Below are positions 2,516 through 55,268 of a DNA stretch of 64,000 bases, one piece after another. Position 1 is the first letter of the stretch. The number at the start of each line of letters is the position of its first letter. The position numbers were made by a program, and so were the translations under genes. The notes below the pieces were generated by a model. The model saw only the letters and a program-made list of their open reading frames with translations. It was not told the origin of the DNA and searched no databases. This DNA is from a virus (Duplodnaviria > Caudoviricetes), in IMG/VR virus record IMGVR_UViG_2904150443_000004, positions 82,368 through 146,367 of that record; one strand, 5' to 3'.

Positions 2516-2539
2516 GGAATACAATAAAAACAATATTTC

Positions 2540-2857
2540 ATGAGCCAATCACGAAAGGTGGGGTTTGGAGAAATGAAAATCCATGGAGATGCTAGTGATA
2601 ATGAAATAAGTATTGAAATTGGAGATATTATTTCCATAGGAAGCAGTTACTATCTAATTGCTTGGAACTTAAAAGAGTTCCAAAGTGTAAATGGATATCA
2701 TCATGACGGAATTCGATTAGTTAATTTATCTACTAGTACAGTAACAGAGCAGCGTTACGGCAGTATTAGTGAGCTAAAAAGTATCTTGCTTCGTGAAGAT
2801 AGAAAAGTTGTGATATATGATGGTGAGAGTGTAGAAATGATTTTATCTAGAAAATAA
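2540..2857 (+). CDS. hypothetical protein (start probably ATG 2573)
   Basis: ORF bracketed by motif copies 2525 and 2884; GGAG RBS before 2573. Confidence 0.6.
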   Translation: MSQSRKVGFGEMKIHGDASDNEISIEIGDIISIGSSYYLIAWNLKEFQSVNGYHHDGIRLVNLSTSTVTEQRYGSISELKSILLREDRKVVIYDGESVEMILSRK

Positions 2858-2911
2858 AAAGTTAAAACTATACATATAAATGATGAAATATAGATTTTAA
2901 AGGGTGATACT

Positions 2912-3331
2912 ATGAATTTCAATAATAAGATGAATAAACTCAGGGAAGAAATTGAGTTGAAACAGCGTGAGTTAGATATATTGGAAAAGGATAATTTTAA
3001 TCCATTAGGAAAGTGGAGAATTAGCACCGAGGGAGATTGTGAAGGTCGTTCTAAGAAACAGCTTGGGGATTATACAGGTAATTTACTTGATATTGTAAAA
3101 CAATTGAGTAATCAAGCATTCTATTCTCTAGACTGTGAGAGAGTTGAGTATTTACATACAGAACATAAAAAGGAGAGTAAGGAGGTTCATTTTAGGGTTA
3201 TAGATAAAAGCATAAAACTGTTTGATAAAGATGAGCAATTACGTAAGTTGTTACCACATGTTTCCGAAGGTCATTCTTTAAGTCATGGTTATTATTTTGG
3301 CGCTGTGAAGTTGGAATGGGAAGAAAAGTGA
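2912..3331 (+). CDS. hypothetical phage protein
   Basis: 139-aa ORF with RBS; TEGDCEGR motif. Confidence 0.65.
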   Translation: MNFNNKMNKLREEIELKQRELDILEKDNFNPLGKWRISTEGDCEGRSKKQLGDYTGNLLDIVKQLSNQAFYSLDCERVEYLHTEHKKESKEVHFRVIDKSIKLFDKDEQLRKLLPHVSEGHSLSHGYYFGAVKLEWEEK

Positions 3332-3356
3332 AACCTAATCTATTCTAAAAGGAGAA

Positions 3357-3608
3357 GTGATAATTATCGGTAAAACTATTTGTAAGTTTATTGCTTATAC
3401 ATTAATTGGCGTTATTCTTTATTTCTCGATATTCATGCCTGAACTATCAATTACTTTAACTGGTGGTTTTGCATGGGCTGCTGTTCTATTATCTTATGGT
3501 TTTGGATTTATTCTTGTCTACATTGGTTTGTTTGGAGGAGAGTTCACTTACAGCTCTAAAGGTATTAAGGGTTGGATTAAGGAAATGAGAAAAAGAAACC
3601 AAAAATAA
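3357..3608 (+). CDS. small membrane protein
   Basis: two hydrophobic segments, AAGGAG RBS. Confidence 0.6.
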   Translation: MIIIGKTICKFIAYTLIGVILYFSIFMPELSITLTGGFAWAAVLLSYGFGFILVYIGLFGGEFTYSSKGIKGWIKEMRKRNQK

Positions 3609-3638
3609 ATAATAAAAACATGTAAGGGGATTTATGAA

Positions 3639-3998: not shown

Positions 3999-4032
3999 CA
4001 TGTAATGAAAGCATCCTTTCATGGGATAGGAG

Positions 4033-4689: not shown

Positions 4690-5497
4690 GGAGGATGAAA
4701 GAATGTCAAAAAAATATAAATATTATCAAATAGGGTTTGCCGAAAGAGAGTCTGATATAAAATTAATTGATGACATTGTAACTTTCTTTGGAAGTGTTGA
4801 AGTAATAAAAGAAATTGAAAACTCAGGTAGACAGAATCTTTGGTCAACATCGAAATTTTATCATCTCGCTTACTCTCTATTTTTCTTTTCGATTAGGGAA
4901 AGGTATTGCGATGCAGCAAGACATAAAGAAGCTGTAAAATATAAAAAATCAAGTGAACTTGAGAATTTACCAATATTAATAGTATAGGATCATAGTGGAT
5001 AGGAGATGGAAATGACAATTAACATTAATAAACCAAGTTGCTACGAATTAAAGTTATTCATTACAAAAGGCACATTACTTATTGCTAATACAAGCGAGTT
5101 CGATTTAACAGAGGGTAGGATATATGCAGCCATGAGAAACCAAGGAGATAGCACTTTCGGTGATTGCATCTTCATTAAGAATAACAAGGGTAATGTAGAA
5201 GATTATACATTAGAGAACTTTTGTCTATACGAAGGGGAAATAGTATCACAATAACTTCAAAAATATCTAAACTACTTCTATCAACGGAATAAAACATATC
5301 TTTCATGCAGTGATTAAAATATTTGAGCTAATCTTCATGATGATGCTAATCATTGCTAGGGGAGTATGTTGATGAAAAATTTTAAAAGTAAAAGATGATA
5401 CAAAGACGTTCGAGCATAATTGGAATCGAAGAAAGATGCAAATAGAGTTTGGGATAAGGTTGATGATTGGTTAGACATCTTACAGTAAAAATAAAAT

Positions 5498-5519
5498 AGA
5501 CCGTCACAATGGACGGTCT
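5498..5519 (-). terminator. intrinsic terminator of the minus-strand gene
   Basis: AGACCGTC/GACGGTCT stem next to an A-tract (U-tract on minus strand). Confidence 0.7.
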
Positions 5520-5527
5520 GCCCTGAA

Positions 5528-5830: not shown

Positions 5831-7189
5831 GAAAATAACCTCCTTTTACTGGTATACGTTCAATAGCAGTCTAACATACTATAAAAAGGAAATCAATGAA
5901 ATAATAGACATCTATGGGGTTCCTTACTTCTTAATCACATGTGGAGAATAAAGAGTAGAGAGAGTTTAAAAGATTGGTCATTTAGGGGAGTTATTATTAG
6001 CTAGAATAAAATCAAATCAAATTTTTATGAGGTGATATTAAATGAACTTTGATCTTGTGTATCTTGAACCGCTTAGTATTCATGCTTATAGAAGACCTGA
6101 TTGTGGAATTCCACTGGTTACAGGAGTGTACTTTATTGAACCAGATGAACACCTTGAAGGTAGACTGTGTTATGAAGTAACCTATGAAGATGGATACAAA
6201 GATTATGTAACTAAGAGTGATGTAGATGAGGGGAAATACAGATTTTTAGTTAAATAAAATATATATAACTACTATATATTATACTTATGGAGGAAAAAAT
6301 TGAAAAAATTTATTTGTGAAGTAGTTAAAAAAGATAGGTATGAAATTGAAATCGATGATCAAATGTTAGATGAGGACTGGATGGAGCGTTTTAATTTCTG
6401 TAATAGGCTTGAATACGACTGTCTTGAAGAACATGCAGTACGCATCTCTAAACATATGTCAAAAAGTTATGACAGTTATATTGATGGATATGGATACCCT
6501 CTTATCAATGGGCATAAGCACTATGCTGCGTTTGATTATCAAGTTGAATCTGGTATAAATATCAAGATTCTCAATGATGAGGATGATATTGAAGTAGATG
6601 TTTTTGAGATATAAAATTACGTTTTTATCATACATAAGGAGGAATCTGTTATGGGGATTATTGATAAATTTAAGGGTTGGTTTGGTAAGAAGGAGATGGA
6701 GAGTGCTATTGATAGCATCAATATGGAAAAAGCGAAACAAGATATCAGTGATGCTGCAAGCAGACTTATTGAAGCGTTCGGAACTCTTTCAAAGAGTATG
6801 GAATATCAAATGAATAACAAAGATATTTGTGAACATGGAAATGAAATTGAACGCTTGACTAAGATTATGAGCAACACAAAAAACAAAAGAATTAAAAAGA
6901 AATTGTTGAAGAGAATCGAGATTCTTAAAGAAAGTGGGTTCTAAAAAAGTGAATAATATAAATATTGAAAAGGTGTTTGTAAATCAGTTTGGCTCGAAAA
7001 AATGGTTCGAAGTTCATTTTAAGTATGATGAACAAACTATCAGTATTAATCTTGACCTTGAGGAAATGAAAAAGCTAGGAGTAACAAAGTCTTTGAATGG
7101 TACAAAAAAGCTAAGAGAATGGCTAATGTCTGATAAAGGCTATGACTATATTAAACGCAGTATGAAATAACTATTTCAAAGGAGATTAA

Positions 7190-8649: not shown

Positions 8650-9885
8650 ATGAAGAAGCGGATTATTATGCTTGTGGATATGCAATCATTTTACGCAAGT
8701 GTTGAAAAGGCGATGCAACCACAATATAAGGACATGCCATTAATTGTTGCAGGAGATCCAGCTAGAAGATCTGGAATTGTTCTTGCTGCATGTCCAATAG
8801 CAAAGAGCTACGGAATTTCAACCGCAGATAGACTTTGGGAGGCACTTAATAAGTGTCCTGACGTTGTAGTTATTCAACCTCATCTGCAACAATATATAGA
8901 CGTTTCCATGCAAATTACGACGATCCTAGAAACGTACACTGATTTGGTGGAACCGTATTCGATAGATGAACAGTTCATTGATGTAACGAACTCCATTCAT
9001 CTCTTTAATATGACTCCCGAAGAATTGGCTGCTGACATTCAGCAACAGATACTACATCAGACAGGAGTATGGGCTAGAGCAGGAATCGGAGAAAACAAGA
9101 TCATCGCTAAAATGTGTTGTGACATGCTGGCGAAGAAAAATAAATCAGGAATCTTCACTTTAAGAAAAGACGAGTTAGACAAGCATCTCTGGCAAAAGCC
9201 AGTTGAAGATATGTGGGGCGTAGGCTCCCGAATGAAACGGCACTTTTATCGTATGGGAATTAGAACGATAGGAGATTTAGCCAGAACCCCACTCCCTAAG
9301 TTAACGAAAAAATGGGGCGTTAACGGTCAAGTTTTATGGCAGTGTTCGAATGGAATCGATAATTCTCCCGTTACAAAGGATTCACATAGTGGGCAAAAGG
9401 TTATTGGTAATGGTATGACTCTTCCAAGAGATTACGCTGAGGTTTGGGAAATAAACGTGGTAATCATGGATATGGTTAATCAAGTTTGCAGAAGGTGCAG
9501 ACAAAAGAAGGTAAGAGGTTCTGTCTTAAATGTGAGCTGCATGGGAGCTGATTGGGATCATCCAACAGGATTCAATCGACAGATTAAACTAATGGATGCC
9601 ACCAATGTAACTACAACAGTATATAAAGCAGCGGTTGACTTATTCCATAAATTTTGGGATGGTGAACCAATTAGACGGATTGGAGTATCAATGTCTGGAT
9701 TAGAAAGTGATGAAGTATATCAATTAACACTTTTCGATGATCAGGTTAAAAATAGAAAGATTGATCAAGTTATGGATGCGGTAAGAGATAAGTTTGGAGA
9801 GACATCAATAGCATGGGCAAGCACATTTACCTCAGCAGGACAGACAATGGATCGTGCATCTAAGATTGGGGGTCATTATAAATGA
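8650..9885 (+). CDS. uvrX: Y-family translesion DNA polymerase (UvrX/DinB/UmuC-like)
   Basis: VDMQSFYASVE, YSIDEQF, WGVG, C-terminal QLTLF clamp motif. Confidence 0.93.
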   Translation: MKKRIIMLVDMQSFYASVEKAMQPQYKDMPLIVAGDPARRSGIVLAACPIAKSYGISTADRLWEALNKCPDVVVIQPHLQQYIDVSMQITTILETYTDLVEPYSIDEQFIDVTNSIHLFNMTPEELAADIQQQILHQTGVWARAGIGENKIIAKMCCDMLAKKNKSGIFTLRKDELDKHLWQKPVEDMWGVGSRMKRHFYRMGIRTIGDLARTPLPKLTKKWGVNGQVLWQCSNGIDNSPVTKDSHSGQKVIGNGMTLPRDYAEVWEINVVIMDMVNQVCRRCRQKKVRGSVLNVSCMGADWDHPTGFNRQIKLMDATNVTTTVYKAAVDLFHKFWDGEPIRRIGVSMSGLESDEVYQLTLFDDQVKNRKIDQVMDAVRDKFGETSIAWASTFTSAGQTMDRASKIGGHYK

Positions 9886-11277: not shown

Positions 11278-11794
11278 AGGGGTGAATCCAATGAAAATTA
11301 TATGTAAAGGTCAAATAAAAGGTTCGTTTCGGGGCTGGAAAAATAGAGACACGGAATATCAATTTGTAAGCGGCGAGAAGTGGAGGCAAGAAGAATACCA
11401 TTATCATTATCACTATTCTTACTATCCAAATGCGAAGGTAATTCAAACAGCAAGAGGTTTCGAAATGCATGTTGATGGATTGAATTTTGGAATGCTTGTT
11501 AAGAGAGTGTATTGAAATATCGTTTTTATGGGGAGAGGTAAAGGTTGAATTGGATATCTAATTCACCAATACAAGACAGAAATGAGCATGGAAAAGATTT
11601 GAGGGTTGAAATATTTGATGATCGTTCTGAATTCCCTGAAGTTGGAGAGGAATACGTCATTTACTGTGAACGTGGATATTTTGAAATTGAACCTACAAGG
11701 TATATTTGGGGAGAATTTCAAGGGGAAAAGATGTATCTCCTTTTGCATAAAGGTGTATTATGATAAAATTGGCATTTTATAAGGAGAAATATAT

Positions 11795-12070: not shown

Positions 12071-12080
12071 GAGAATACAT

Positions 12081-12376: not shown

Positions 12377-12889
12377 ATGCCAGAGTTCTTTTCGGAATTA
12401 TTTTCAACAGAAAATATAATTAAAATGATAACGACAGGACTTCCCACATTGCTAATTGCTCTACTAGTTCCCTTATATTCTGTAAGGGTTGCCTTAAAGC
12501 AATTTTATAGTCAGAAATGGTGGGAAACAAAAGCTAAAGCATATTTTGAAATCATTGAAAATTTATCTACTTTAGAATATATCTACGGAGAGTATTTTGA
12601 ACATTATGTGATGAACAGTATTAAATTTTCAGACGAAAAAATAAACAGTTTCTATGAGATACAAGTTAAGGCTCTTTCTGAAATAAAAAAGTATTCGGCT
12701 ATGGGTAATTACATTATCTCCAATGAAGTGTCTGAGGTATTGAAAAATCTATTGAGAGAGCTAGATTATAGACACAAAGAAGGTAACTGGTTTGAAGACA
12801 TAGAACATCATCATGGAGCCATTATTGAATGTTTAAAACTGACAAAAGAGAGCGCTAAAAGTGATTTGAATAGAAGAAAGATGAAATAA
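12377..12889 (+). CDS. membrane-anchored hypothetical protein
   Basis: AAGGAG RBS before ATG 12377, N-terminal TM, KWWETK..AY motif; bracketed by motifs 12327 and 12882. Confidence 0.65.
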   Translation: MPEFFSELFSTENIIKMITTGLPTLLIALLVPLYSVRVALKQFYSQKWWETKAKAYFEIIENLSTLEYIYGEYFEHYVMNSIKFSDEKINSFYEIQVKALSEIKKYSAMGNYIISNEVSEVLKNLLRELDYRHKEGNWFEDIEHHHGAIIECLKLTKESAKSDLNRRKMK

Positions 12890-13397
12890 TACTTTTATAA
12901 CCGAAAGGGGACGAGCAAAGTGAATGTTTTTGAGGCATTTAATTTGATGAATGCAGGTCACATAGTAAAGGATGACTATGGTTATTGGTTTAAAAAAGAT
13001 GATAATCAACTAATTGATTCTATAGATGAAGGAAAGACATGGCACCCAACGGAAGAATTTAAGTATGGTTACATTAATCAAAAATGGCATTTAGTTAAAT
13101 GAAGATAAAACAATTCATTTATTTGGAGGTGTTATGAAAAATGGACGGTCTCGAATCATGTAGTTATTGTAAACCGAAAAACGCGAAAACATTGCTTGCA
13201 GGTAAAGCAGCGTATATGTCAGCATGGGTACAAATTTATACTAATGATAGTGATGTAAGATTGGGATTGAGCGCAAAAGGAGAAAGTGATATTGGAAATT
13301 CAGTTGAGATTTTTTACTGTCCAATGTGCGGTAGAAAATTAAGTGGCAAGAACAAAACGAAATGAGTATTTTATTTGAACTGAGGGAGGAATGTGAA

Positions 13398-14291: not shown

Positions 14292-15872
14292 ATCTAAATA
14301 AATGGGAGGAGTATCTGAATATATAATTTGGTGATAAAGTATTGTATCGGGTAAATGAAAATATAGTGGAGGTAAAACATGGATTGTGACCATAGAGAGA
14401 TTATAATAGGCAATACAGAGGGCGCAAAGCTTGGAAGCGGAGTATACGAAGTAGATTTTGTGATTAGTTGTAATGTTTGCGAGAAAGAGTTATTTCGTAT
14501 AAGTGAGTGTAAAAGAATAATTAATAATATTTCAAAACATTGAATAAAACGAATCTTTTATTGGAGGTGGATTATATGTTCATTGAGGTAGCACTGATTG
14601 GTAAACACAAGGATATAATCATTAATATCAACAACATTGTCAAGATTGAAGCTCTTGAAGAAAAGCAGCATGTCGATGGCCTAGATTGGTATGCTACTCG
14701 GATTGATTTGTCTGAATCAGATTTTGTTCTGGTTAGAGAAACACATCGCCAAATTAAAGATAAAATTAAAGCTGCTGGCGGTAAGGTGGATTAACAATAA
14801 CATGTGAGTTTGATCGGGGCAAATGTGGTTTATTGTTGAAATAGTAATATCATAAATTTATCTGGAGGGATGTAGCATGGACAAAAAGACATTCGATATT
14901 ATCAATGGCTATAATAACATTACTAATGAGCTTTATTTCAAACTGGAAAAGATAGTAGGCATGGATAAAGCTGAAGAACTTTTAAGAGAGATTGATGAGC
15001 ACACTTCAAAACTTTTGAAGCTTGGCAAATACACAGATGAGTCAAGTATAGTTGAAGAAGAAGGGTTTTTAAAGAAAGAATACGAGGGCATTCCAATGTA
15101 TACAAAGGTGATAGTACTTTATAGATATGATAGTGGCTATTCTTTGTGTGAAACTACGACAGATTTAACAGTGTTTATTCCAACTGATCTTATATGTCAT
15201 GAGACAGAATAATTAATGTGTACATAACTAATAAGGACGTGAATTAGTATGGGAAAATTCAATGAAATGCTTTCTACAATTGACAAAGAACAAATCGAAT
15301 CTATTCAAAATATCGATTATGATTTATGGAATTATTCTTTACAACAATACCCACAGGCATTATTTGATATGCTATGTTTAGACTCAAGGGAACTAGATGA
15401 GGATGAGCGTAGAGAACGGATAGTTGCATTAGACGCTGCTTACGTCTATCTTCAATCAACTATGGAAGAAATAAGCAAGGAACTTAGAAAAAAATACTCA
15501 ACTGATAGATTGAATTATTAGAAAACGGAAGGAGAACAAGGAGATGCGTGAATTTAGAGATTGTCTAACTTGTGGTAACTCGCTTAGTGCTGATGGAGAA
15601 AATGGTGAACATATCTTATATTGTGTAGTTCATGATAAATTTGTTGATGAAGAAGAAACATGTGAAGATTATGGATAAGCCTATTAATTAAAGAGTATAA
15701 AATATGACTTTTATATAGTTTTATATGTATAGTAATTATTTTTATCAGTTGGGTATTAGAATGAAAACTAAAATCTATCACTGTGACGAACAAGAATTGG
15801 TTAAGATTAAGGGGGAATTCAAGTATCTTGAATCAAAAGATGTAAGAATATATTCATATAGAGGTGTCATAA

Positions 15873-17099: not shown

Positions 17100-17495
17100 T
17101 TAAGCAAGAGCCAGCTAAAAAATAGAGTAAATGCATCCATACTCTGTTTGCTGATTACTGGCTTTTGTATAGAAATACAAACCAGAGATTTATGAAATGC
17201 GAATTTTATATTGACTACATGTTTGGAGGATAGTAATATGATTTTAGCTTGTTATGGTATGATGGTGGTGCATTTAATACCGCAACAGGGCATTATGAAC
17301 CATTCTTTGTTTTCTTTGGTCGGAAAACAAAGGAAGCCGCCATATAGGATTAGTTCTGAAAGTGGCGGTTTTAATATAGGTATAAATATAAAATATGATA
17401 CAATACATTATTAATTAATGAATATCAAGCAATATAATACACTAAAAATCTCTATTTTTAAATGAAAGTTTAGGATATGAAAAGGAGGAATAGTA

Positions 17496-17918: not shown

Positions 17919-18874
17919 TAAAAACTGTATGATGTAGAAAAGGATGAGAGTTAAATATGGAAAAAGTGTTTAAAAACATCAATAAATTTGATCTGTATAA
18001 CTTACAAGGTAAAACTCTGACATTTAAGCTCACCAAAGATGTTATGGAGGATGGTGTTTATGAATGTATGGTTGGAATTGATTTAAGTAATAAGAGTGCA
18101 TACATATTTGATACACGATATCAAAAAAATGAAATGTAATAAAACAGACATTTCAATGGAGGTGATTCGATGAATATGAAATTAGAAACAGAAAAGCGAC
18201 TTAAAGAATTACGTAAAAGGAAACTAGAGTATAAATATCTAGAGAAAAAACTATCTGAAATTAACAAAGAAATTAAGTACTACTCGAATGTATTGGCTCT
18301 ATTAAATAAAGTATCAATACAGGAATTAATGAAAACTATGTAATTCGTCTATGAGATACATGAAGTAAGAATCAATGTTTTATCAGGATAGAAAAGGAGG
18401 GTAGAGTATTCAAAATGGAACGAAAAAAGATTGAGTTTTGGACATATGGGTATGAGAATGGGAGTATTGTTATCTGTTTTGATAAAGGACAGAAATATAT
18501 TGAACTAAGTCCTAAAGATGTTAAGTCAATGGCATCTTGGATTATGATGGAGAATGGCACATACATACCTAACTGGAATGCTGATTTAATCAATTAAGAA
18601 ATAATGAGGTAATTATAAGTGTCAGTATACATAGGTAACGATGAAGACCTAGGAAAGGCTTATACATATTCAAGTTTAGATTGTCGTATCTTACGAATTA
18701 GAGTTCAAAAGGTAAATAAAAAGAAACATCAATGCGAGTTCTGCGGAACTGAAATCAACGAGAATGATGGTTCTGCATATTACTCAGGTATGAACTTAGG
18801 GAAGTTTTATTGTTTTCATTCATGTATGAAGTGTCATAATCAATAATATAAAATAATAAGGAGTAATTCAAGAT

Positions 18875-19449: not shown

Positions 19450-19998
19450 TGATTCATATACATAGGACAGTGTTGCACATTCGTACATAATGTCGAATAT
19501 GGACTAATACTGCGATTACCTGAGAAATAATTCGGAGGAGAAAATGAAATTATCTGTTACAGCTCAATTATATTATAATGCCTGTTATATGGATGGTGAT
19601 GCTGTTTGTATTCAGCCTCGTTTCACTGAAAAGAGTAGGAAGAACGAGCATGCATTTACAGAAGAGATATTAAATGAACTTCTAGAAACAGGAGATATTA
19701 GGGTTACATACAAAGATTCGAAATACGCTAATATTTGCGGAAGAAATAAAAAATAGAGGTGTGCATATGATAGTTGAAACTAAACTAAGTGACGACTTTG
19801 AAGTTGATTTTATTCGAGAAACTAACAATAGAAATAGTGAATGTATGGTTATTGGCACAGAAGCAAATCTAATTTACATACACATGACTGAAGAACGCTT
19901 CAAGAGTTTCATACAAACAGCAAATAATGCGCTAATTGAATATCAGAAGCAGCATACTAAGAGGATATAAAACTTAAATTTCATTAGGGGGTAATGAT

Positions 19999-24791: not shown

Positions 24792-25820
24792 ATAAATGCT
24801 TCTGACCTGAAGGATAAAATAATTCAAGATGATAAAGTTAAGGATATAGTCAACGCATTGGGCTGCTCTAATTTTAGAAAAGGAACTAGTTATTATACAT
24901 GCTCCAATCCAGATGGAGATGCAAGAGCAGCCATAAATATCAATATTGAAAATCTTAGTGTTATGAATCACACTCGAAATGATTTTCCAAAAGAACGTGC
25001 AGATATTATTACCTTAGTTGAATACATAAAAGATTTCTACTTTACAAAAGCAATGAATTGGATCTGTGAGGTATGTGGGTACGATTATTATCATGGAGAT
25101 TTTGAAAAAGAAAAAATTGATGATCCCTGTTTATTAGCGCTCGATGTTATAGAGTCAAAAACACTAGACAAGGAAATTGAATTAAGAAAATTAGATGATA
25201 GGATATTATTTGAGTATGTGCAGTATCCTCACATTCTTTTTTTGCAAGAGGGAATATCATTAGATGTACAAAAATTATTTGAGGTTGGTTACTCAGTTAG
25301 AGATAGTTGCATAACAATTCCTATCAGGGACGAGTTAGGAAGTTTGGTTGGTGTTAAAGGGCGAACCACACTTGATTATGAGAAGTTGAAAATGTCTAAA
25401 TATTGGTTCCCTTACGCAACTCCCAAATCACAAATACTCTATGGGCTAGATAAATCGTATCAGTTCATAAAGGATTCAGGCAAAGTATTAGTTTATGAAG
25501 CTGAAAAAAGTGTTCAAAAAAGCTTCTCTTACAATATAAAAAATTGTGTCAGTATAGGTGGACATATACTTAGTGAAACACAGGTTATGAAGCTAGAGAA
25601 GTTAGGAGTAGATGTAATCCTCGCCTTCGACAAGAATGTGACTGCTGAAGAAATAAAGGATGAGGCAAGGAAATTTATTATTCCAGAAAAAGTTTATACG
25701 ATTTTTGAGCAAAAGAATAAACTTCTCGACGAAAAGGATGCTCCAGTTGATAAGGGAAGAGATATATTTATCCAACTGCTTACAACAGAAACATATAGAG
25801 CACTAAAGCAAGGGGAATGA
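24792..25820 (+). CDS. DNA primase (TOPRIM) (probable ATA start at 24792)
   Basis: IPIRDE.G..VG.KGR, VYEAEKS, LAFDK; follows the helicase. Confidence 0.85.
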   Translation: MNASDLKDKIIQDDKVKDIVNALGCSNFRKGTSYYTCSNPDGDARAAININIENLSVMNHTRNDFPKERADIITLVEYIKDFYFTKAMNWICEVCGYDYYHGDFEKEKIDDPCLLALDVIESKTLDKEIELRKLDDRILFEYVQYPHILFLQEGISLDVQKLFEVGYSVRDSCITIPIRDELGSLVGVKGRTTLDYEKLKMSKYWFPYATPKSQILYGLDKSYQFIKDSGKVLVYEAEKSVQKSFSYNIKNCVSIGGHILSETQVMKLEKLGVDVILAFDKNVTAEEIKDEARKFIIPEKVYTIFEQKNKLLDEKDAPVDKGRDIFIQLLTTETYRALKQGE

Positions 25821-25883
25821 AACTACTCTTTCATAGCCAATGATCCAATAAGATAAAATATATAAATACATATAAAATATCTG

Positions 25884-32221: not shown

Positions 32222-32909
32222 TATAGAACGTGTCATGCGTAAGATTTGTGAAACACAGGACGATAGTTGGAATGGTGAATGCTCCTGTCTGGATTGTTAT
32301 TGGAATATGAACCATCCAACGAAACGACCGGACGATAAACAGTGTGTTTCAGAGGATTTAGCTGATACTCGAATGATTCCGAATACGGTAGAGTGCCCAT
32401 CTTATTGGTCATTTACTTTCGCATGCGGGGTTTCAAAGGAAGGAGATAGTAATGATGCCTGAAACGATACAGCAGTCGGCAAGAGACTGGCAAGAAGACT
32501 GGAAGCAAGTTGAAGCACACAGACACGCCAAGAATTTATTCAACTGTCCTATCCGTAAATTGCATACGATGCATGGAATGATAGAGATTGAAAACGATAC
32601 GGAACGATTAGCCTACTGGATGCAGGAGTATAAGAATTTACAGGAAAGTTATGAATCACTTGAGTTGATGCATAAAGAACAGAAAAATCGAGCTGACTCT
32701 CTTTTAATGTTGATAAAGGACGTGTCTGAATTGATATCATGGAAACATAGGATTCAAAAAGATGGAGTTGAAGAGGCACTAAAGTTAATTTATAAATGGC
32801 TAATTGATAATCCAGTTAATAAAGCTGTCACAACAGAAAAAAACTAGTAATAAAAGAATAATTTCATAATATAAATAAAATATCACTATCAATACATATA
32901 AATAAGTGG

Positions 32910-34162: not shown

Positions 34163-34673
34163 ATAAAATATGTAGGTACATAATTGTATCTACAATACAT
34201 AGATATTAAGGGTGAAGTAAATAATGTTTATAGAATGCTACGGAGATTATACAATTGTTGGTAGAATTAGTGATGTGTTTTATATAGAAGGGGTAGAATC
34301 TTTAGAAGAGCTTCAGGAGATTATAAAGAGCAAGACACCAATTGAATGTTGGGAACCAACAATGTATGACAAAGGACGTATTGCATATTCAGAAGGTTTG
34401 AGAAAAAGAATTGTTTATCTAAATAACTACATGAAAATTAAACAAAGACACTTTTATCTTCTAGATCAAAATGAAAGAAAAGAAATTGAAAATAAAGTTT
34501 GTAAAACATGTAAATGTAATGATGGTTCTTTTACTGGAGCACTAAGCTGTAACTATCATGCCAGTTCAAATGAGGGCTGTTTGAATTACGAAAAATCGCT
34601 ATATGCATCTGCAATAAGTTGGCTAAAAGGTGGAAAATCAGGTGATAAAACATGAGTTTCATAGGGGGCAACA

Positions 34674-35832: not shown

Positions 35833-36372
35833 TTGAATAATGTTTGGTTCATATCAGACCCACATTTTGGACACAAGAATATCATAAAATATGAAAATCG
35901 TCCTTTTGTAGATGTGGAGCATATGGATAATGTAATTATTGAAAACTATAATAAAACTGTTAATGATGGAGATATGGTATTCTGGTTGGGAGATATGTTT
36001 TTTTGCAACGCTAAAAGAATCGATTACATCTCAAATCGCCTTAAAAGCACAAGAAACATATTAATTAGAGGTAACCATGACAAGGGGATTACTGATGGGA
36101 AATTTAAAAAGCTTGGCTTCATGCCGTATAAAATGTATCAGTGGGGAAATTGTATCTTGACACATGAACCACTTTCCGAAGTGAATTTGAACTATTTAAA
36201 AGATATCGGAATCTGGCTAAACATACATGGACATACCCATTCAGAAAATCAGCACCTAGATCCCAAAAAATACTTTTGTGCATCGGTTGAGAATACAGAT
36301 TATAGGCCTATTAATGCAACAGAGATTGAAATAAAAGTTATTTCGGCTTCTAAACGTAAAAGAATGCAATAA
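35833..36372 (+). CDS. calcineurin-like metallophosphoesterase
   Basis: SDPHFGH, LGD, RGNHD, HGHTH. Confidence 0.88.
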   Translation: MNNVWFISDPHFGHKNIIKYENRPFVDVEHMDNVIIENYNKTVNDGDMVFWLGDMFFCNAKRIDYISNRLKSTRNILIRGNHDKGITDGKFKKLGFMPYKMYQWGNCILTHEPLSEVNLNYLKDIGIWLNIHGHTHSENQHLDPKKYFCASVENTDYRPINATEIEIKVISASKRKRMQ

Positions 36373-36776
36373 AAGATTCATTTTAAGAGGTGTCGATTTT
36401 GAGTATCAAAATGTTGCATATAACTTTGCAATTAAAAAACATAAGTAAAGGGGAGTAAAACAATGTCACTTTCTTTAAAACAAGAACAACCTGAAGTCAT
36501 AACTGTTGGCAATATGAAATTTACTGAGTCACAACTAAAGGCGCTTCATTCTGGAGTACTTAAGGTTTTTAGTGCTGTACATGACCTGGACAATCCTTTA
36601 GTTTTTACGCCTTCAGAAACAGCAGTATGGGGTAAGGTTATGTTTGATATTGAAAGAGCTGGAATAGTAAATACATATAAATAAAAAATAATAAATATAA
36701 ATAAAAATATTGATTTATGTTAATTAAAACTGTTATGATAATCTCATCAAATCAGAAAGGAATGAACAAGTAAAAA

Positions 36777-38465: not shown

Positions 38466-41195
38466 GAGAGATATCCATGGGACACTTCTTTCAAATTGGT
38501 GATATGGTCGAAATTTACTCACAAAGTCACAATCTATATGGTAAAATCGGTTCTGTTTTAGAGACAAAGAACTGGAAATTATCAGGTCAAATGAAACAAG
38601 ATATTAAAATACGTATTAATGGAATGGATATTTGGACTCCTTCAGAGGATTGTTTGATTTATTAATAAGAGAATAAAATTTGAATTTTATGAGGAAAGGT
38701 ATGAAACTAAATCTTGACGAATTCAGAAATTATTAATTTATGGATTAATGAGCAAATTGAAGCAGGTAAAACAGATAAGGATATAGACGGAACAACATTC
38801 TACGATAAAAGTGATGTGTATACAATTAAGAAAACTAAACGTAAACATATCTTTGATTTGAAGTGTACACTTGGTGGGGGTATCGACCTCAATTCATTGA
38901 AGAATATCTATGTTAACATCGAAAAAAAATAAATCTTAATTGGAAGATCATGAAAACTATCTTCAAAGGAGATTGACTATGGATAAGATTATGGTATCTA
39001 TCACAAAGGCTGAATACGAAAGTTTGCTTGATGATAGTAACAAGTTAGGCTGCTTAGAGGCTTATGGTGTTGATAATTGGCAGGGGTACAGCTATGCAAT
39101 GGAGATGTATGAAGAGATGAAAGTGGAATGATGAAGATGGAGTTTAATCTGAGAGTTGGAGACGATGGTATGCCTTGTATTCATGCATCAGTGGTAGGAA
39201 GTGGAGTTGTTTACCCAAGGGGAGATCATCGATTTGAATATTCAAAGCAAAATATGTATATGAGTGAATACAAAATAAAAGGTTGCCAAGATCAGAGACG
39301 ATTTATCATTTCCATAAGACTAGATGGAATAGATGGGAAATGCAAACTAACACAAATGAACTTTCGTCATGATGACATGTTGGAACTTAGGAACAAAATT
39401 GATGAATTACTCAGGTATAAGGCGACACGATGAAAGAAGAGTTTTATGGAGAAAGAGGTGAGAAATATTCCAGAGTTTATCTATGAAACTAAAAACGGTA
39501 AATACTCATTTGAAGACACAGGAAGTTGTATCGTTATTTGGAGGAATGGTAGGAAATGGGGATCACCACCGATGGATGGTGCACTAAGATCAGTAATCAA
39601 TGATTTAATTGAACTTAGAGAAGAAAACTGTAGGCTTAAAGAAGAGTTGAGTGACTATACGAGAAAACTGATTAATGCTCGATCATCAACTGCTATACCG
39701 TTTCATAAGATGAGCGAGAAGGCTCGACGAGAGACGGTCGAAGCAATGCTTGATGAATAATTTTTGAAAGAGGATTTTCATGAGGGAAGGAGATTATAAA
39801 TGGCTGAAGGTGTAGTAAGAGCAGTACCCAAGGAACCGTTAATCGGTGAAGAGATAGCTTCAAAGCATGGCTATGAGATCAATAATGCACTATGGCAGCT
39901 AAAAGCATTCCATACTGAACACGGAGGAAGTCCAGTAATTACAGGAGTTGTTACTTTGGATGCAACAATTAGATCTAGAACTGTTCCCAGATATAAGCTG
40001 CTTTTCCCGGATGGGTTTATTGACTACGCAAAAGTTGATAATTTTGATACGTTCTACATTTTAGTTCCAGAATCATTTTAACCAAAACTGCGAGTATAAA
40101 ATTATGGGGAGATAATTGTATATGAGTGATAAACTATATTTTAAGATAAAGCAAGGGACTAAATATGATAAAGCAGTAAAAGAGCACTTCAAACTCAGAA
40201 AACTTTGGACTAATGTCTTTCCTTTAGTGAGTGAGTTATTAAGTGAGCAGATTACAAGAATCGCACGTCATCCAGATGATTTATACATAGATACTTCAGA
40301 AATAAAAAATGAAGAGAATAAAAAACTATTTAACCGAGAAGGAAAGCTGAAATCGAACACAAAGAGAGCAAAAGAGATCCATGAAGAATATAAGAGAATT
40401 ATTCAAAAAGTTGGATTAACTGAATTTAGAGATCTAGGTACGATTAACTTTATCTATGGTGTAATGAGACTTTCAGGAGAGCACTTAAAGAGTTACCGTA
40501 CAAGTGATGATGATATTTATTACGAATGTGATTTTGATCTTGAAAAGCGTTCTAATGGATTAGTTGTGCCAATTACTGAGATCGAATATCAAGAAAAGTA
40601 TCTTGAAGAGCTAAAGAAGTAAAAGGAGGAAGACGAATGAAAGCAGATAATGCGTTTTTATCAGCCTTAATCAATAAGCTTCAGGAAATAAGTGATAATA
40701 CATGTGATCTAAATACCCAAACTGAGATAGATGAATTGATTGAAGCTGCTGTTAACTCATTAGAATAAAATAACCATTTCAAAGGAGGAAAGACAATATG
40801 CATATCGTTGAATTTACCACAGAAGAACTATGGGATATTGTGAATGGAAAGCATGAGTTTGCTCATATTGTACAAGAAAATACACACCGTGAAGGATGGT
40901 ATATCTACTATGAGGTAATCTTCCAGTCTAATGGAGTTATGTATTCATTCGGCTACAAAGAGCACACTTCACCAAACGTTGCAGAGCGTGAAATCGTTAA
41001 AGAGTCAAAACCGCTTGATGTGCAGCCTGTACACGTAAACCCTGATGAAGAGGCGCGGTTTATCTGGAAAGAGTTAATGAAGAGTAATAAAGGATACATA
41101 GGTGTTGAGGATATAAAAGAAATTATTGAATTACAAGGAAAATATTTAGAGAGTATTAATATTTTCATTTAAAAAATCGAAAGGGAGTATATAAC

Positions 41196-41642: not shown

Positions 41643-42076
41643 AGGAGGGATTGGCTAATGAAAGCAAAGTTTCATGGTATTGAAGTAGAAGGAACAGTAG
41701 AGGAAATTGTAAAACTGAAGAGCATTCTTGATGGACAAAGGAAAAAGGATACCGTTATTTATCATACAGTAACTTTACAAAATTCAAAAGAATGTGATTC
41801 TCTAGTTAAAGCTATTCAAGAATCACTTTCACAGCATATGAATTCCTTTAAAAAGCAGAATACTCATAGTTCTATGAAATGTTCTTGCAATGTGTTAGAT
41901 GACATTGAAAAACTAAAAGAAGAATTCAATCTTTTAAAGAATGAGCTCGGTAACAAAGCAGATAAAGGGCATACTCATTCGGTATCCATTAATAATCACA
42001 ATCATGGGAATCCACAAAATCTACAAGGTGGTGGAGGAACGTATATTACTTCTGTAGATCAGGTTTAGTTAATAAG

Positions 42077-42754: not shown

Positions 42755-43534
42755 TTGAATAGTCCAATTAAATGGGTTGGTGGAAAGTCAAGAATGGTTA
42801 AAAAGATGATTCCACTAATTCCTAATCATAAAGGGTATGTTGAAGTTTTTGGAGGAGCAGCATATTTACTATTCGGCAAGGATAGATCTAACTGGGAGAT
42901 TGTTAATGATTTAGATAATGGTCTAATGAACTTTTGGTTTGTAGTTAAGAATGCAAAAGAAGAATTTCTAAATAGCTTCAAGTACACATTAATCAGCCGA
43001 GAGACATTCAATGATTATAAAAAGAAATGGAAAACTGGTAATATTCATGATTCAATTGAAAGAGCACATGTATTCTATTATCTAGTAAATGCAGGCTTTG
43101 GGGCTGATATGAAGAATCCTGTTTTCGGGACAAAAAAAGATAAATTTCCATTGCAGCTAGATAAAATTCATCGAGATATTGATGAAGCCTATGAAAGAAT
43201 TAAAACTGTGGTAATTGAACAATTAGATTTTAGAAAATGCATAGAAAAGTACGACAGCGACGACACTTTCTTTTATATCGATAGCCCATATAGAAACACT
43301 AAAGAGTATGCTGTGGGAAAGTTTACAGACAATGATTATGAAGATTTATATCGTATTTGTAAAAACTGCAAGGGAAAGTGGCTTTATACAATAAACAATG
43401 ATGAATACATAAGAGATTTATTCAAAGAATTCAACATAATTAATCATGAAGTTTATTATAGCGTTTGTAAAACAAACAGCGGAAGACAGGAATTTAAAGA
43501 GTTAATTATTACTAACTATGATATAACAGAATAA
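42755..43534 (+). CDS. DNA adenine methyltransferase (D12/Dam class)
   Basis: PIKWVGGKS, YVEVFGG, NDLD, FYIDSPY (DPPY variant), ELIITNY. Confidence 0.88.
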   Translation: MNSPIKWVGGKSRMVKKMIPLIPNHKGYVEVFGGAAYLLFGKDRSNWEIVNDLDNGLMNFWFVVKNAKEEFLNSFKYTLISRETFNDYKKKWKTGNIHDSIERAHVFYYLVNAGFGADMKNPVFGTKKDKFPLQLDKIHRDIDEAYERIKTVVIEQLDFRKCIEKYDSDDTFFYIDSPYRNTKEYAVGKFTDNDYEDLYRICKNCKGKWLYTINNDEYIRDLFKEFNIINHEVYYSVCKTNSGRQEFKELIITNYDITE

Positions 43535-44471
43535 AATTAATCTTTTATTAGTTAATAAAAATATAAGGAGAATGGTTATGGACAATAAAACTCTAAATGC
43601 AAATAACATTGAGGATGCAAAAGCAAAGATTTCTGATATCGAAGTGTATGGTAATGGAGATACGTTTGAACTGTTGTGCAAGGCAAGCTCTGAATCTCAG
43701 GGCTGGATGAAATCGACAAAGGTATGTAATTTGCCGAATGGATGCTTAGTGCAAGTATCAACCCAACAAAAAAATGTAGACGGTAGTTATAGTGTGGCTG
43801 AGGCAATAACATTTGTCCCTGATGTGAAGATGATTCACTTTGATGGTTGTAATCCTCGCCTTGTTTCTTTGCAGTGAAGCAGAAGTAAATAAGGAGGGTA
43901 ATAGAATAGTGGTGTCAAGAACGAATTAGAACTGATTAGGGAACACGATATTTATATTAACCGATAAAAAAGGAGCTGTTTGGGATTATGGAAAAATTGA
44001 TAGTTAGTGAACTGAACAGATTGCAAGATGATTATTTTGACGCTCAGGAAGAACTATTTTATCACAAAAATAAGTACAATGAATATCGTGATGAGTGTGT
44101 AAAAATTATAGAAGAAATTCGTAAAAACCTAATACGATTGCATGATATTAATCCAGCCAATGAATATGAGATTGAATCTGAAATTATCCTTTAGTCAAAA
44201 TGATACTTGGCTTATATGATAATGAAACAGTTCTTTTATAAGGGGGTGATACTACTGAATAAGTGTAAATTTGAGGTGGGGCACAATTATGGAAACTTGG
44301 ATAACTCAATTGATTACTACAAAGAAAACCATGAGAGTGACATTATTTTTATTAAAGATACATCCGGAGCGATAGTTTCATTTAATCTTGATGAGGCCAA
44401 GAGTGTGATTCAGCGACTAGATGAACTTATTTATGACGTAATGAGAGGTGTGCAACAGGAGGGACGCTAAA

Positions 44472-50326: not shown

Positions 50327-50339
50327 TAAAAAAAGTATA

Positions 50340-50368
50340 TTGACGATATGAGAGTGTGGTGCTATGAT
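50340..50368 (+). promoter_or_regulatory. sigmaA-type promoter
   Basis: TTGACG-17-(TGn)TATGAT with upstream A-tract. Confidence 0.65.
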
Positions 50369-51369: not shown

Positions 51370-51606
51370 TTTTTATGAGTAGAGGTGAATTCATGGGTTG
51401 GTATAGATTTGTAGATGCAATGGAGAAGTTAGAACAATTGACTAAGGATGGATGGTCATTCAAGTTTTCTAATGAAAAAGTAGAAGTGCTCTATAATACA
51501 TCCCATGTAAGATGGATAAGCAACTCAGATGAACTTACAGCATTTATTGATGATACATATTATTAAAATAACACTTTTATAGTGGAAAAATGAGGGGTGT
51601 AAGAAA

Positions 51607-51990
51607 ATGTTGATAGAAAATATTTTATCTATTAAGACTGGTAGGGAACTGGATGCTATAGCAGCAGAGAAAGTAATGTCATGGAAGAGTGGGGTTGATT
51701 TCGATATTGTAGATGATATGGAATTTGGCGTAGCCAGATATGAACCATTTAGTATGGATGTCAGAACGTTTTCTCCGTCAACAGATATTAGTTCAGCTTG
51801 GGAATTGGTTAACAAACTGAAAGAAACCGATTGGATGCTGTATAAATTAAACCACGAAGAATCTAATGATATGAGAACTATAAATTATAGATGCGTCTTG
51901 TTAAATGTGGTTAATGGGAAATCAATCGAAGTAACAAAAGAAGAAGCTCCAGAAGCAATTTGTAAGGCTACTGTTTTGGCTATGCTATAA
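51607..51990 (+). CDS. phage ABA-sandwich (BC1872-like) protein
   Basis: GRELD, FSPSTDISSAW, APEAICKA. Confidence 0.7.
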   Translation: MLIENILSIKTGRELDAIAAEKVMSWKSGVDFDIVDDMEFGVARYEPFSMDVRTFSPSTDISSAWELVNKLKETDWMLYKLNHEESNDMRTINYRCVLLNVVNGKSIEVTKEEAPEAICKATVLAML

Positions 51991-53659
51991 AAGATGTATT
52001 TTATAATATAAAAATAAGAAAGAGGGTAAATATTTTACGAGTAGAAGTAGTCTGTTCGAGATCGATCAAAATTATAATGGGATAGTAAGTGAAGAATATA
52101 CTAATTCTTGGTGGTTTAGTCCTATTATATGGGATGTGCTCCTTGATAAATATTTGCACAATGAGATTCTAACACCTTATGGCTATAAGAAAAGCTTAAT
52201 TGGACTTGATGGAGATAAGCTACAGCGTCAATTAAATGAAATTATAAATAATTGTAATAATATTTCTGATCGAATCTGTTGGGAGATTTCGATGCAACAA
52301 ATATTCTTTACTAAAGACAAGGATATCGTTGTACGAGGGATTAAAGATTTCCTCGTGAATAATAAAGAGTATCATTTAAACGACGATGGAGTTTCTTGTT
52401 TAGAATATGAGCATATTGCTGAAAGATTTAATCAAATTGCTGACAACATATCAGATATCGATGAGAAAAAATCTCCGTACTTCGTCTTTAAAAATACAAG
52501 TGTGGATGATGGAGTTGAGTATTGGTTTGAACAATATGATGAGGAGACGGAAGAGTATAAAGAAAAATCTTTAAAAGATTGGGATAAGTTAATAGCTGAA
52601 TTTGTAAAGATCGAAGACGGTCAAATAAGCTTTATTAACAACCTTGATTATTTCAAGCAGATCAATAACTAGGGGGATGTGATCAATTCAATGGAAAAAG
52701 GTAGGACTAACAGAGGGTTCACTGTCATTAATTTTACCGATTTATACGATGTAAAATGCTCTCTTCAGAAATCATCATTAGCAACAGAAGATGCGGTTTG
52801 GTTAGGGGTTGACTATGTTGATCCGAAGATATTGGCGAGTAAGACACCTCAAGGTGGAACTGGATGGGTTCCCTACGAAATTCCAGAAGATGTACTTTTA
52901 ACAACAAGAATGCATCTAAATAGAGAACAGGCGAAAGAATTAGTTAGTGCTTTAAATGTGTTTATTGAGACTGGAGACTTGTAGGCCACAATAAAAGCTA
53001 CATTTCATTCTAAAGGAGAGGATAAGTATCAATATGTGGGACAGACTTGAGCAACGTGGTAGATTAGAGTTAGGTTTAAATGATGAATGGTACTTATATG
53101 CTGCTGATCTGAATGAAAGTGATTGTGCTGATTTAATGTTCGCTCGGAAAAATGAGAACATATTCTTAGCAAAAAATACTGTATCATGCAGTGTTACGTA
53201 CTTTGATCTACGTGATTGATTGTGAAATGTGATTTTTATAGGATCATATCACAGATAAGGGAGAATAAGTGATTATGGGGGAAATATCCGAATATTATAT
53301 AGACAAATTAATATTTAACGAACCAAGGAGATGCAAACCTCAAAAAGTTGTATGGACAACAAGTGATGGGGTAGTTCATGAACCTAGAGATATGTCTAAT
53401 AGACATCTAATGAATGTACTTCATGTTTGTGAACGAAGAGAAGGTTATAAAGGTGTTAGATTCTTAAATAATGCCCCAACATATAGAACAATAGTATTAG
53501 AGTTGATCAACAGAGGCGTACTCAGTAATAATTATTTTGATTTAACAATTGAAAACAGATTAAAAATCAGATTGGATTAAGTATTCAAAGCGAGAAATAT
53601 ATAAATATGCTTATCTAAGAAGTATAATTCTAAAATATATATAACAAAGGAGATATTAA

Positions 53660-54955
53660 ATGAAACAAGAATTAGTTAAAGGAATTGAAGAAGTCATTAA
53701 ATCGTACAATAAAAAGCAGAATACAAATCAATATCAGTTTGAAAAGAAAAAACTCTATGCTCACTTAGGTTTATCCTTAGTTCAATTATTGACGAAGTAC
53801 GAGTGCTACATTGCTGGTGGAACTATTACAAGTCTTATGTGTAATCGAGAGATTAATGACATCGATATTTATTTTAGAGATGAAAAATCATTAATCGGCT
53901 TTGTTGAAGAAGTATGGGGTGACGGTTGGGTTATTTCACAAACCGATAAGGCTCTATTAATCAAGTATCAAAAAACAATTGATACCCAATTAATTTACTT
54001 CAAGTATTTTAGTAACCCAGAAGAGATTTTTGAAACATTTGATTTTACAGTTTGTATGGGATGCTTTGACTTTAAGACAGAAGAATTTATCCTACATGAA
54101 GACTTCTTTAAACATAATTCACAGCGGCTGCTAAAGTTCAACCCTAAAACTGCATACCCAATCATTTCTCTCATGCGAACATGGAAATATAAAGAGAAAC
54201 AATATAAGATATCAAAGGCAGAGATGATTCGAATTATTCTGACATGTATGCAACTTAACATCACCTCGCTAACTGAGTTAAAAGAGCAGCTTGGTGGTAT
54301 GTACGGCAATAATTTTGATAAGTTACTTAAAGATGAAGAAGGCAACGAAAAAGAGTTAGACATGAATGAAGTGATTGAATACATATCTGAATTATCTATG
54401 GAAGATAAATACTTTGAAACTCCATCTAATTTAAAACGTGAGTTTGGAAATATGCAGGATTTTCTAGACGATTTAATTAAGTCAGAAGTTGAATACATTG
54501 TCATAAACAAAAATAGTGAAGATGAAGAAATATATCGAATTTATAATGGTAAGCTACACCATTCAGAGAGTAAGCCAAAGATCGGAAAAGAATTAGATCC
54601 AGTTGAATACTTCAAAAACAAAAAATATTATAAATTCGTCAAAAAGAATAAAGAGGGTAAATACTTTAGTTTTTATGATTCAAATTTCGAGTACATTATT
54701 GGAGTTATAGCCATTGCTAAGGAAAATGGATACTATCATACTCCTGCACTGTATTTTAATGAGTTACGAGATATTAATAAGTCGACTTATTCTAGCGAAC
54801 AAGAAAAAGCTCTGCTTGAAGTTACTGTTGACAGTGAAGAGCTTGTTGATGTTGATGGTGATACGATTAAATTTAAAAAGTGTCATGTAGTTCGTGAAGT
54901 TCCCAAAGAGGAGTATGCTTCCTTATTGGGTAAAGAAGACGATGATTGGATTTAA
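53660..54955 (+). CDS. phage nucleotidyltransferase-like protein (polA/CCA-type head)
   Basis: YIAGG....INDIDIYF and FDFTVC motifs. Confidence 0.7.
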   Translation: MKQELVKGIEEVIKSYNKKQNTNQYQFEKKKLYAHLGLSLVQLLTKYECYIAGGTITSLMCNREINDIDIYFRDEKSLIGFVEEVWGDGWVISQTDKALLIKYQKTIDTQLIYFKYFSNPEEIFETFDFTVCMGCFDFKTEEFILHEDFFKHNSQRLLKFNPKTAYPIISLMRTWKYKEKQYKISKAEMIRIILTCMQLNITSLTELKEQLGGMYGNNFDKLLKDEEGNEKELDMNEVIEYISELSMEDKYFETPSNLKREFGNMQDFLDDLIKSEVEYIVINKNSEDEEIYRIYNGKLHHSESKPKIGKELDPVEYFKNKKYYKFVKKNKEGKYFSFYDSNFEYIIGVIAIAKENGYYHTPALYFNELRDINKSTYSSEQEKALLEVTVDSEELVDVDGDTIKFKKCHVVREVPKEEYASLLGKEDDDWI

Positions 54956-55268
54956 GGGGGAATAAAAGGACAATTTCATAGGTATTAATTATTGAAATAT
55001 ACATAAAAGGAATGAGTATATGACTGAATATAAATTGTATCGTTACTCATCTGGTGATGATGAAAAACTCATTATGCAAAGTAGTGACATTGACTTTAGT
55101 ATTATGGTAGCCAAAGAAATGTCTTACGATTTTTACACTTGTCGATTAGAGACTTGGGTTGATGATAAACAGGAATATGGTTTTAGGTACTTTAGTAAAG
55201 GAGAGGAGATTACAGAACAAATTATTGCAGCTATCTTGGCTGAGTATGTGGAATAACATATGAAGTAG

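Follow-up and report, generated by a model that had tools for sequence, protein, structure and literature searches.

Phage genomes are mosaic and yet keep their gene order, and how the two go together is a long-standing question. It is raised in a particular form by the 64-kb window studied here (64,000 nucleotides; the right part of a single 146,367-bp provirus record, IMGVR_UViG_2904150443_000004, called the contig below), which carries SPbeta-type replication and nucleotide-metabolism genes and in which a short palindrome, TRAAA-N6-TTTYA, recurs at dozens of gene borders. An initial annotation of the window took these palindromes for the recombination joints of an integron-like system of gene cassettes. 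In this study we show that the motif is a trait of the SPbeta-like phage family, that its sites, as judged from genome comparison, behave as recombination joints in evolution, and that the six bases at the centre of each site are probably a conserved, position-specific address. Sequence-addressed joints, if this is what the sites are, would offer a concrete mechanism for genomes that are mosaic and ordered at once.

A palindrome with a single spacing

We found 34 exact copies of TRAAA-N6-TTTYA in the window, whereas 100 dinucleotide shuffles of it gave an expectation of 2.19 (sd 1.52) and a maximum of 9; none of the 100 reached 34. The whole contig holds 62 copies. The shuffled control bears out the initial view that this is a real repeated palindrome, and the three copies then quoted as examples (11764, 28449 and 36370) are all exact sites. 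The count given at the time, 30 exact and about 10 near copies, holds in its first part, which rises to 34, and fails in its second: with up to one mismatch allowed, 77 sites are found in the window against 42.6 expected, which leaves about 43 copies with exactly one mismatch where about 40 are expected. As a class the near copies are at chance, and the term is tenable for individual copies at gene junctions only. Among the 34 exact copies an A at position -1 (30/34) and a T at position +16 (29/34) extend the motif to A-TRAAA-N6-TTTYA-T, and the conserved positions are confined to -1 to 4 and 11 to 16, or 5-6 bp per arm. A scan of the contig over spacings of 0-15 gave the 62 copies at N6 and 1-7 at each other spacing; reversed and direct arrangements of the arms, scanned in the same contig, showed a peak at no spacing.

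A/T-rich intergenic DNA, in which stop codons are followed by runs of A and T, might be thought to yield such palindromes by chance or as a compositional by-product. The genome has a G+C content of 34% and the one-mismatch copies stand at chance level, as that account would have it. It is nevertheless refuted by the site count and by a peak that appears solely at spacing 6, and the same pattern returns in SPbeta, in phi3T and in 35 of 41 related loci; we regard a chance origin as practically out of the question.

Occurrence across SPbeta-like phages

SPbeta carries 36 copies (about 3.8 expected) and phi3T carries 34, nearly all of the form TAAAA-N6-TTTTA and again at N6 only. The scan was extended to the surroundings of RecJ-like genes in Paenibacillus genomes and viral contigs, 41 loci in all: 35 have an N6 peak, the six that lack it are more distant, and in total there are 363 copies at N6 against 13-35 at other spacings. 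The motif was initially said to be missing from host DNA, of which the window holds very little. Of the 18 strict 18-bp sites in a complete Paenibacillus genome of 7.2 Mb that has a related prophage, 10 fall into one 148-kb prophage region. The arms are thus conserved from Bacillus to Paenibacillus phages, which implies a conserved protein.

Homologues of the RecJ-like protein of the window were found in Paenibacillus genomes and in contigs of uncultivated viruses, with 60% identity for the best, and the identity of the protein to phage relatives is 34-39%. At the DNA level no close relative was found among deposited phages, where the best megablast matches reach at most 5% coverage at 74-75% identity, nor among viral contigs scanned with a single protein. 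The only close relative we found is a phage about 85-92% identical (compared over window 27000-46900) that is represented in a metagenome run from 2023, X2, by contigs of 85 kb and 31 kb.

Sites at the joints of mosaic genomes

Between the window phage and its X2 relative, whole genes are swapped out between common blocks. The base-level breakpoints of the window phage, which are taken solely from the X2 contigs, include 28 listed joint ends, and six of these (28462, 34640, 36368, 38665, 39789 and 44219) lie within 10 nt of an exact site where our own arithmetic predicts about 0.6; some of the remaining ends fall at gene borders without the motif. The same tendency is seen at larger scale in 16 of the 41 related loci. 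Of their 590 unique homology-block ends, 180 are no more than 30 bp away from the centre of a site, compared with 21.9 for random positions. When SPbeta is compared with phi3T, a site is found within 30 bp for 11 of the 64 block ends, and random positions give 0.97. In the 16 loci the homology blocks extend across the motif and end at its outer edge. Counted by junction, comparisons break at 260/337 exact and 95/120 near-motif junctions (77-79%). The initial annotation had named breakpoints in related phages as the place to look, and they do cluster at the motif, at its outer edges. Its proposal of recombination joints is strengthened by this accumulation of block ends, by the core-site geometry and by the presence of tyrosine-recombinase-fold genes in the contig.

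Block ends concentrated at motif edges might also arise if the palindrome were cut or nicked by a site-specific nuclease or nickase of the phage and crossovers were placed alongside through repair from a second phage in the same cell. Palindromic arms point to an enzyme that acts on DNA as a dimer, and recombination genes are present, namely the RecJ-like open reading frame (ORF) in the window and, in the SPbeta record, SPbeta-type Sak4 and resolvase genes. Break-induced repair, however, does not need a specific 6-bp centre and would not preserve one, and no candidate nuclease is tied to the motif, which makes cutting hot spots an improbable explanation.

A one-mismatch copy at window 36702-36717 lies just 5' of the RecJ-like gene, at a place where several X2 contigs break off or jump, with loose ends at 36707-36710 and one joint leading from 36707 to 45139.

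Six-base centres as probable addresses

Before the centres were analysed, duplicate loci (L015, L016, L027 or L011, L040) and loci without the motif (L010, L012, L041-L044) were dropped. Of 69 site pairs that share the upstream flank only, 59 agree in all six centre bases, as do 35 of 46 pairs that share the downstream flank only. Together these fractions exceed one, so that most exchanges took place between parents that already had a common centre. For the 84 site pairs in which homology runs across the site, mismatch amounts to 15-16% of flank positions, 15.5% of R/Y positions, 2.5% of the fixed positions of the arms and 3.8% of centre positions, so that the centre evolves about four times more slowly than the flanks while R/Y drifts at the flank rate. 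At the level of seven clusters, variable columns make up 4/42 in the centre and 147/511 in the flanks. The centres also keep their places: 25 of them reappear in a common order across about 20 loci, with R/Y varying within one address, and SPbeta and phi3T have 24 of 36 centres in common and collinear, with both flanks homologous at 11 of these, one at 8 and neither at 5. Self-complementary centres are absent from the 178 distinct ones (3.9 expected), as would be expected of an overlap that orients the site.

The window has some of these centres, too. Four of its 13 sites near the RecJ-like gene carry common centres, whereas simulation gives a mean of 0.18 and none of 20000 draws reaches four. 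They are GATTCA (36370; 6 related loci, 7 occurrences including the window), TTTGAA (38674; 15 loci, 16 occurrences), GAAGAG (39431; 10 loci, 11 occurrences) and CAGTTC (44223; 9 loci, 10 occurrences). At all four sites we found no DNA similarity between the flanks in the window and those in the related loci. Nor did blastp against the related loci detect similarity between flanking proteins at 38674, 39431 and 44223, the three sites covered by the protein comparison (best E 0.38); no flanking ORFs were called for 36370 in the related loci. The initial annotation had invoked a tolerance of differing overlaps as in Tn916. Centres that are conserved, position-specific and collinear point instead to exchange of like with like at equivalent positions.

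Possible exchange by a tyrosine-recombinase-family protein

Inverted arms of 5-6 bp around exactly 6 bp have the geometry of a tyrosine-recombinase core site. Cre, Flp, lambda Int and XerCD all require identity of the overlap for strand exchange, and site-specific recombination with such a requirement would maintain centres that are conserved, non-palindromic and position-specific. That the sites are heterospecific joints exchanged by a phage tyrosine-recombinase-family protein is the reading we prefer, although we see it as an evenly balanced proposition. The arms A-TRAAA and TTTYA-T would then be the common protein recognition element and the 6-bp centre the position-specific address of each joint. 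A joint would recombine with the same-centre joint in another SPbeta-like genome, and the genes on either side could be replaced with their order kept. Strand exchange over the 6-bp centre would need identity, and a gene with a different address on each side could be exchanged as a cassette between genomes in the same cell. The agent might be the product of the YopP-like or the YomM-like gene of the contig. As a more tentative suggestion, to which we lean less, SPbeta-like phages of Bacillus and Paenibacillus could possess a natural cassette-exchange system with dozens of heterospecific sites, swaps between same addresses and synteny preserved. Should this be true, it would explain the one-at-a-time turnover of accessory, defence and counter-defence genes in large temperate phages, and should a recombinase be involved, the sites would form a natural set of mutually exclusive recombination sites. 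As the motif and the address behaviour are found in SPbeta and phi3T, which are genetically tractable in Bacillus subtilis, the idea is directly testable.

The window contains no tyrosine recombinase, as was noted initially; we located three ORFs with a Phage_integrase fold in the rest of the contig, one YomM-like, one YopP-like and one MrpR-like. The YomM-like ORF (contig 16160-17173, minus strand; L045 1459-2472) lies in the late region and is 63% identical to SPbeta YomM, far above the 34-39% seen between the RecJ-like protein and phage relatives. The YopP-like ORF is 30% identical to YopP, and its HxLR and GH align with those of IntI4, the best IntI4 match being weak (E 0.22). The MrpR-like ORF (contig 73892-74869; L047 1147-2124) matches PDB 9rd5/9rgl, 'Core-binding (CB) domain-containing protein', with E 6.8e-34, compared with E 5.4e-28 for SPbeta MrpR (8a0a); the gene 5' of it, in the position of yopQ, encodes a DndB-family protein. 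All five near-complete relatives with the motif (93-100%) have a YopP-like gene, and none of 3 motif-poor viral fragments (53-87% complete) does, with weak matches in two bacterial genomes. Co-occurrence of the YomM-like or YopP-like gene with the motif is too confounded by kinship to name the enzyme. A further frame of 149 aa at contig 65825-66211 (L048, L049) has two tandem HTH_3 domains and is a possible single-chain reader of an operator with two half-sites.

Several points weigh against recombinase-mediated exchange between addressed joints. Junctions without the motif break too, in 268/528 and 105/212 comparisons (about 50%), and the motif, as far as comparison tells, enriches breaks yet is not required for mosaicism; junctions that carry it may merely be those that separate independent accessory genes. 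The evidence for joints is comparative throughout, the site pairs and loci are phylogenetically non-independent, with statistics that reuse related genomes, and the cluster-level test of the centre comprises only seven clusters. The order of addresses is not absolute, as in the window GATTCA precedes the RecJ-like gene and TTTGAA and GAAGAG follow it, while in the related group all three precede it. Selection for address compatibility between phages would be a second-order effect. The arms, with 5-6 conserved bp, are short for most tyrosine-recombinase sites, which usually have 9-13 bp. The candidate enzymes raise doubts of their own: the YomM-like proteins of the window phage and SPbeta as well as SPbeta YopP have, by eye, HxxK in place of the HxxR of the family; a close YomM-like protein occurs in 3 of 5 motif-bearing relatives, the other two having matches of only 27-30% identity; and loss of recombinase function has been reported for the MrpR family (PMC10516654).

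Sites between genes and the operator alternative

The placement of the sites allows for a second reading. With genes called by a crude script, 81% of the contig is coding, and yet 51 of its 62 sites fall outside the called genes, in keeping with the earlier statement that almost all lie between genes. The TRA of the left arm is a stop codon in 17 of the 62. In the window this applies to ten exact sites (6612, 11513, 19968, 25818, 36370, 39431, 40766, 43532, 51564 and 51988), and two one-mismatch copies (13755 and 42714) each end an ORF as well; together they account for the at least 12 such stops listed initially. A ribosome-binding site (RBS) starts 1-3 nt past the right arm in about half of the window copies, and where the intergenic gap is long the site adjoins the upstream stop and not the RBS. 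The exact sites at 9233, 27588 and 41659 lie within or at the edge of ORFs. No exact site was found in the helicase-primase stretch (19984-25817) or the nrd stretch (44239-51563); the initial claim that the replication, nrd and dnaE blocks are all free of the motif holds for these two and fails just after dnaE, where the site at 59320 lies inside an ORF.

It is possible, if rather unlikely in our estimate, that the sites are first of all operators, all bound by one dimeric phage regulator that acts as a silencer or roadblock in the manner of stoperators, and that recombination is a by-product of the 16-18 bp of microhomology they provide. We consider this, the alternative already offered in the initial annotation, the main rival. 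A geometry of 5-6-5 is typical of operators for helix-turn-helix dimers, and the half-sites are symmetric and independent of each other. The sites are dense in the early, small-gene arms (55 in contig 45-146 kb) and sparse in the late region (7 in 1-45 kb). Their position within long operons, directly behind a stop and ahead of an RBS, is that of stoperators (PMC9283540). No excess of sigma-70-like promoters was seen in window 1-20000 (92 against 99.1 expected from shuffles), the contig offers regulators in its tandem HTH_3 protein and its MrpR-like protein, and motif-less junctions, too, recombine. Yet if one regulator accepts 62 different centres, there is no cause for conservation of the centre close to the level of the arms (3.8%, compared with 15-16% in the flanks), nor for a centre that outlasts the replacement of both neighbouring genes. 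For the known master repressor of SPbeta, MrpR, ten ChAP-seq peaks are reported at promoters carrying the element SPBRE (PMC10516654), which is a different sequence.

The identity of the palindrome with the SPBRE/MrpR operator was itself considered and rejected. Nine of the ten listed MrpR-bound SPbeta promoters share a TATGTATATAATA-like core, which is another sequence, and the palindrome lies upstream of just three of the ten genes concerned. The two elements resemble each other in that both are repeated between genes in the same phage family, SPBRE being bound by a protein of tyrosine-recombinase fold; they differ in that SPBRE is a 15-bp element at about ten SPbeta promoters (PMC10516654), has the TATGTATATAATA-like core and is not the palindrome. 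A YonO promoter was rejected as well, the motif being found mostly in the early arms. Host promoters were rejected on the scan of window 1-20000, in which neither the promoters counted above nor terminator-like sites (6 against 5.7 expected from shuffles) were in excess.

Double-stranded DNA rather than a hairpin

A palindrome in front of an RBS could also act in RNA, as a small hairpin or protein-binding site in polycistronic messages that controls processing, stability or translation. The sites do lie inside operons, and the proximity of the RBS in about half of the window copies would suit such a role. The R and Y positions are informative here, since they could pair in a hairpin on the sense strand. 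In the contig their combinations (n = 55) are G/C 15, G/T 13, A/C 18 and A/T 9 (Fisher p 0.41), the A/C mismatch being the commonest class, and in 31 other loci G/T (55) and A/C (53) are about equal. The pattern in which G-U is tolerated and A-C avoided is thus missing, and we rejected the RNA hairpin on this ground. As R and Y do not covary, each half-site is recognised on its own, in the manner of a protein dimer, and from these counts we conclude that duplex DNA and not a hairpin is the target. An RNA-level role is further disfavoured by the distance from site to RBS, which varies in SPbeta, by the sites in long gaps that adjoin the upstream stop, and by genes on the minus strand, which are served by the same palindrome; we judge it very improbable.

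Relation to known systems

The comparison with integrons made initially is not supported. The attC sites of integrons, which also have a Pc promoter, are long imperfect palindromes; IntI recombines them with one attI while they are folded as single strands. The resemblance lies in promoterless single genes bounded by recombination sites. The sites of the window differ in being 16-18 bp long, without selection for a hairpin, and no attC-like folded site or single attI-like capture point was found; the centres are conserved and collinear. That motif-less junctions also break (about 50% compared with 77-79%) weakens the analogy further.

In concept, the nearest systems are dif modules bounded by pdif sites, PeSL cassettes of T4-type phages and engineered heterospecific exchange with lox or FRT. 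Recombinase-mediated cassette exchange with heterospecific lox or FRT sites is an engineered procedure with 13-bp arms and one or few site types. It shares with the proposed joints the common inverted arms, a short centre that decides which sites are partners, and the use of two centres around a gene for exchange without deletion or inversion; the phages would have natural centre variants by the dozen, in fixed order, and the recombinase is only inferred. For pdif sites we know of no conserved order of centres. On Acinetobacter plasmids many such sites with 6-bp centres delimit accessory modules that shuffle between replicons (PMC6449649, PMC13141974), which is alike, whereas the sites there are asymmetric, 28 bp long and recognised by XerC-XerD, with host enzymes and modules carried on plasmids. 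PeSL in T4-type phages are likewise a repeated intergenic motif that mediates shuffling in hyperplastic regions of small genes (PMC2839356, PMC4122927), but as described they are cassettes of a strong sigma-70-like promoter and a terminator stem-loop that act by homologous recombination and mini-circles (PMC2839356). The phage motif, unlike these, is an 18-bp palindrome with a position-specific centre, and promoters and terminators are not in excess in window 1-20000. Stoperators are asymmetric, oriented with transcription, built to one consensus without a variable conserved centre, and bound by a monomeric repressor. The sites reported here are symmetric and have site-specific centres. The two are alike in that dozens of short sites, repressor sites in the case of the Cluster A mycobacteriophages, are spread across short intergenic gaps of a temperate phage (PMC9283540, PMC6550527).

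In form, the closest natural site is difH. In Helicobacter and Campylobacter the difH site of XerH has arms (TGAAAA and TTTTCA) of six always-palindromic positions each, which enclose a unique central region of 6 bp; it is the substrate of a single tyrosine recombinase, and mutations in the arms abolish recombination (PMC3325230). The differences are that difH occurs as one site per chromosome, serves dimer resolution in dependence on FtsK and has conserved outer positions, and that an extra A in each arm makes the spacing from TGAAA to TTTCA 8 bp in place of the 6 bp of the phage motif. We found no description of the palindrome in SPbeta-like phages in the literature searched, with supplementary hybrid-site and ChAP-seq tables lying outside the search. 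Literal motif strings gave a sole match, in a paper on an unrelated archaeal regulator (PMC5397151).

Site coordinates and further observations

The 34 exact sites of the window are listed in Table 1.

Table 1. Exact TRAAA-N6-TTTYA sites in the window and their surroundings
Window position	Surroundings
2525..2540	intergenic
2884..2899	start codon 12 nt downstream
4006..4021	intergenic, RBS directly after
5290..5305	intergenic
6612..6627	left arm = stop of ORF 6300-6614
7163..7178	end of ORF 6934-7170
9233..9248	within Y-family polymerase ORF 8650-9885; possibly chance copy
11513..11528	left arm = stop of ORF 11282-11515
11764..11779	stop 1 nt before, start 15 nt after
12882..12897	overlaps end of ORF 12242-12889
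14545..14560	stop 2 nt before, start 15 nt after
15698..15713	intergenic
17193..17208	intergenic, stop 94 nt before
18140..18155	stop 1 nt before, start 14 nt after
19968..19983	left arm = stop of ORF 19761-19970
25818..25833	left arm = stop of primase-like ORF 24858-25820; A/T-rich promoter-like repeat after
27588..27603	within ORF 27385-27624; X2-relative block end 24 nt after
28449..28464	between ORFs 28213-28434 and 28480-28731; X2 homology stops within site (28462)
32851..32866	stop 4 nt before; promoter-like repeat after
34646..34661	X2 homology restarts 6 nt before (34640)
36370..36385	left arm = stop; centre GATTCA; X2 homology restarts 2 nt before (36368)
38674..38689	centre TTTGAA; X2 homology stops 9 nt before (38665)
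39431..39446	left arm = stop; centre GAAGAG
39765..39780	X2 homology restarts 9 nt after (39789)
40766..40781	left arm closes short ORF; start 16 nt after
41659..41674	at start of ORF 41658-42068
43532..43547	left arm = stop of ORF 42713-43534
44223..44238	before nrd block; centre CAGTTC; X2 homology restarts 4 nt before (44219)
51564..51579	left arm = stop of ORF 51375-51566
51988..52003	left arm = stop of ORF 51607-51990
52992..53007	stop 8 nt before
53223..53238	stop 4 nt before
54963..54978	stop 8 nt before; promoter-like repeat after, then dnaE block
59320..59335	within ORF 59231-59488, past dnaE; possibly chance copy

Three motif copies with a long gap behind them are followed by an A/T-rich repeat with a ATACATATAAA-like core (window 25834-25880, 32867-32900 and 54979-55010). 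In position and style this repeat resembles the SPBRE promoter boxes of SPbeta, and it may be the MrpR-type operator and promoter of this phage. Beyond the window, at contig 77380-77395, an exact motif stands a few bases 5' of a sequence that resembles the start of a tRNA gene. The NrdE-like ORF of the window (44818-48060; 1080 aa) has an insert resembling an intein, and in the SPbeta record bnrdE is annotated with an intein and an intron. At the right end of the prophage (window 60570-64000) a serine integrase gene (60570-62243; 557 aa) is followed by an ORF of 133 aa and then by a host gene for an hflX-like GTPase.

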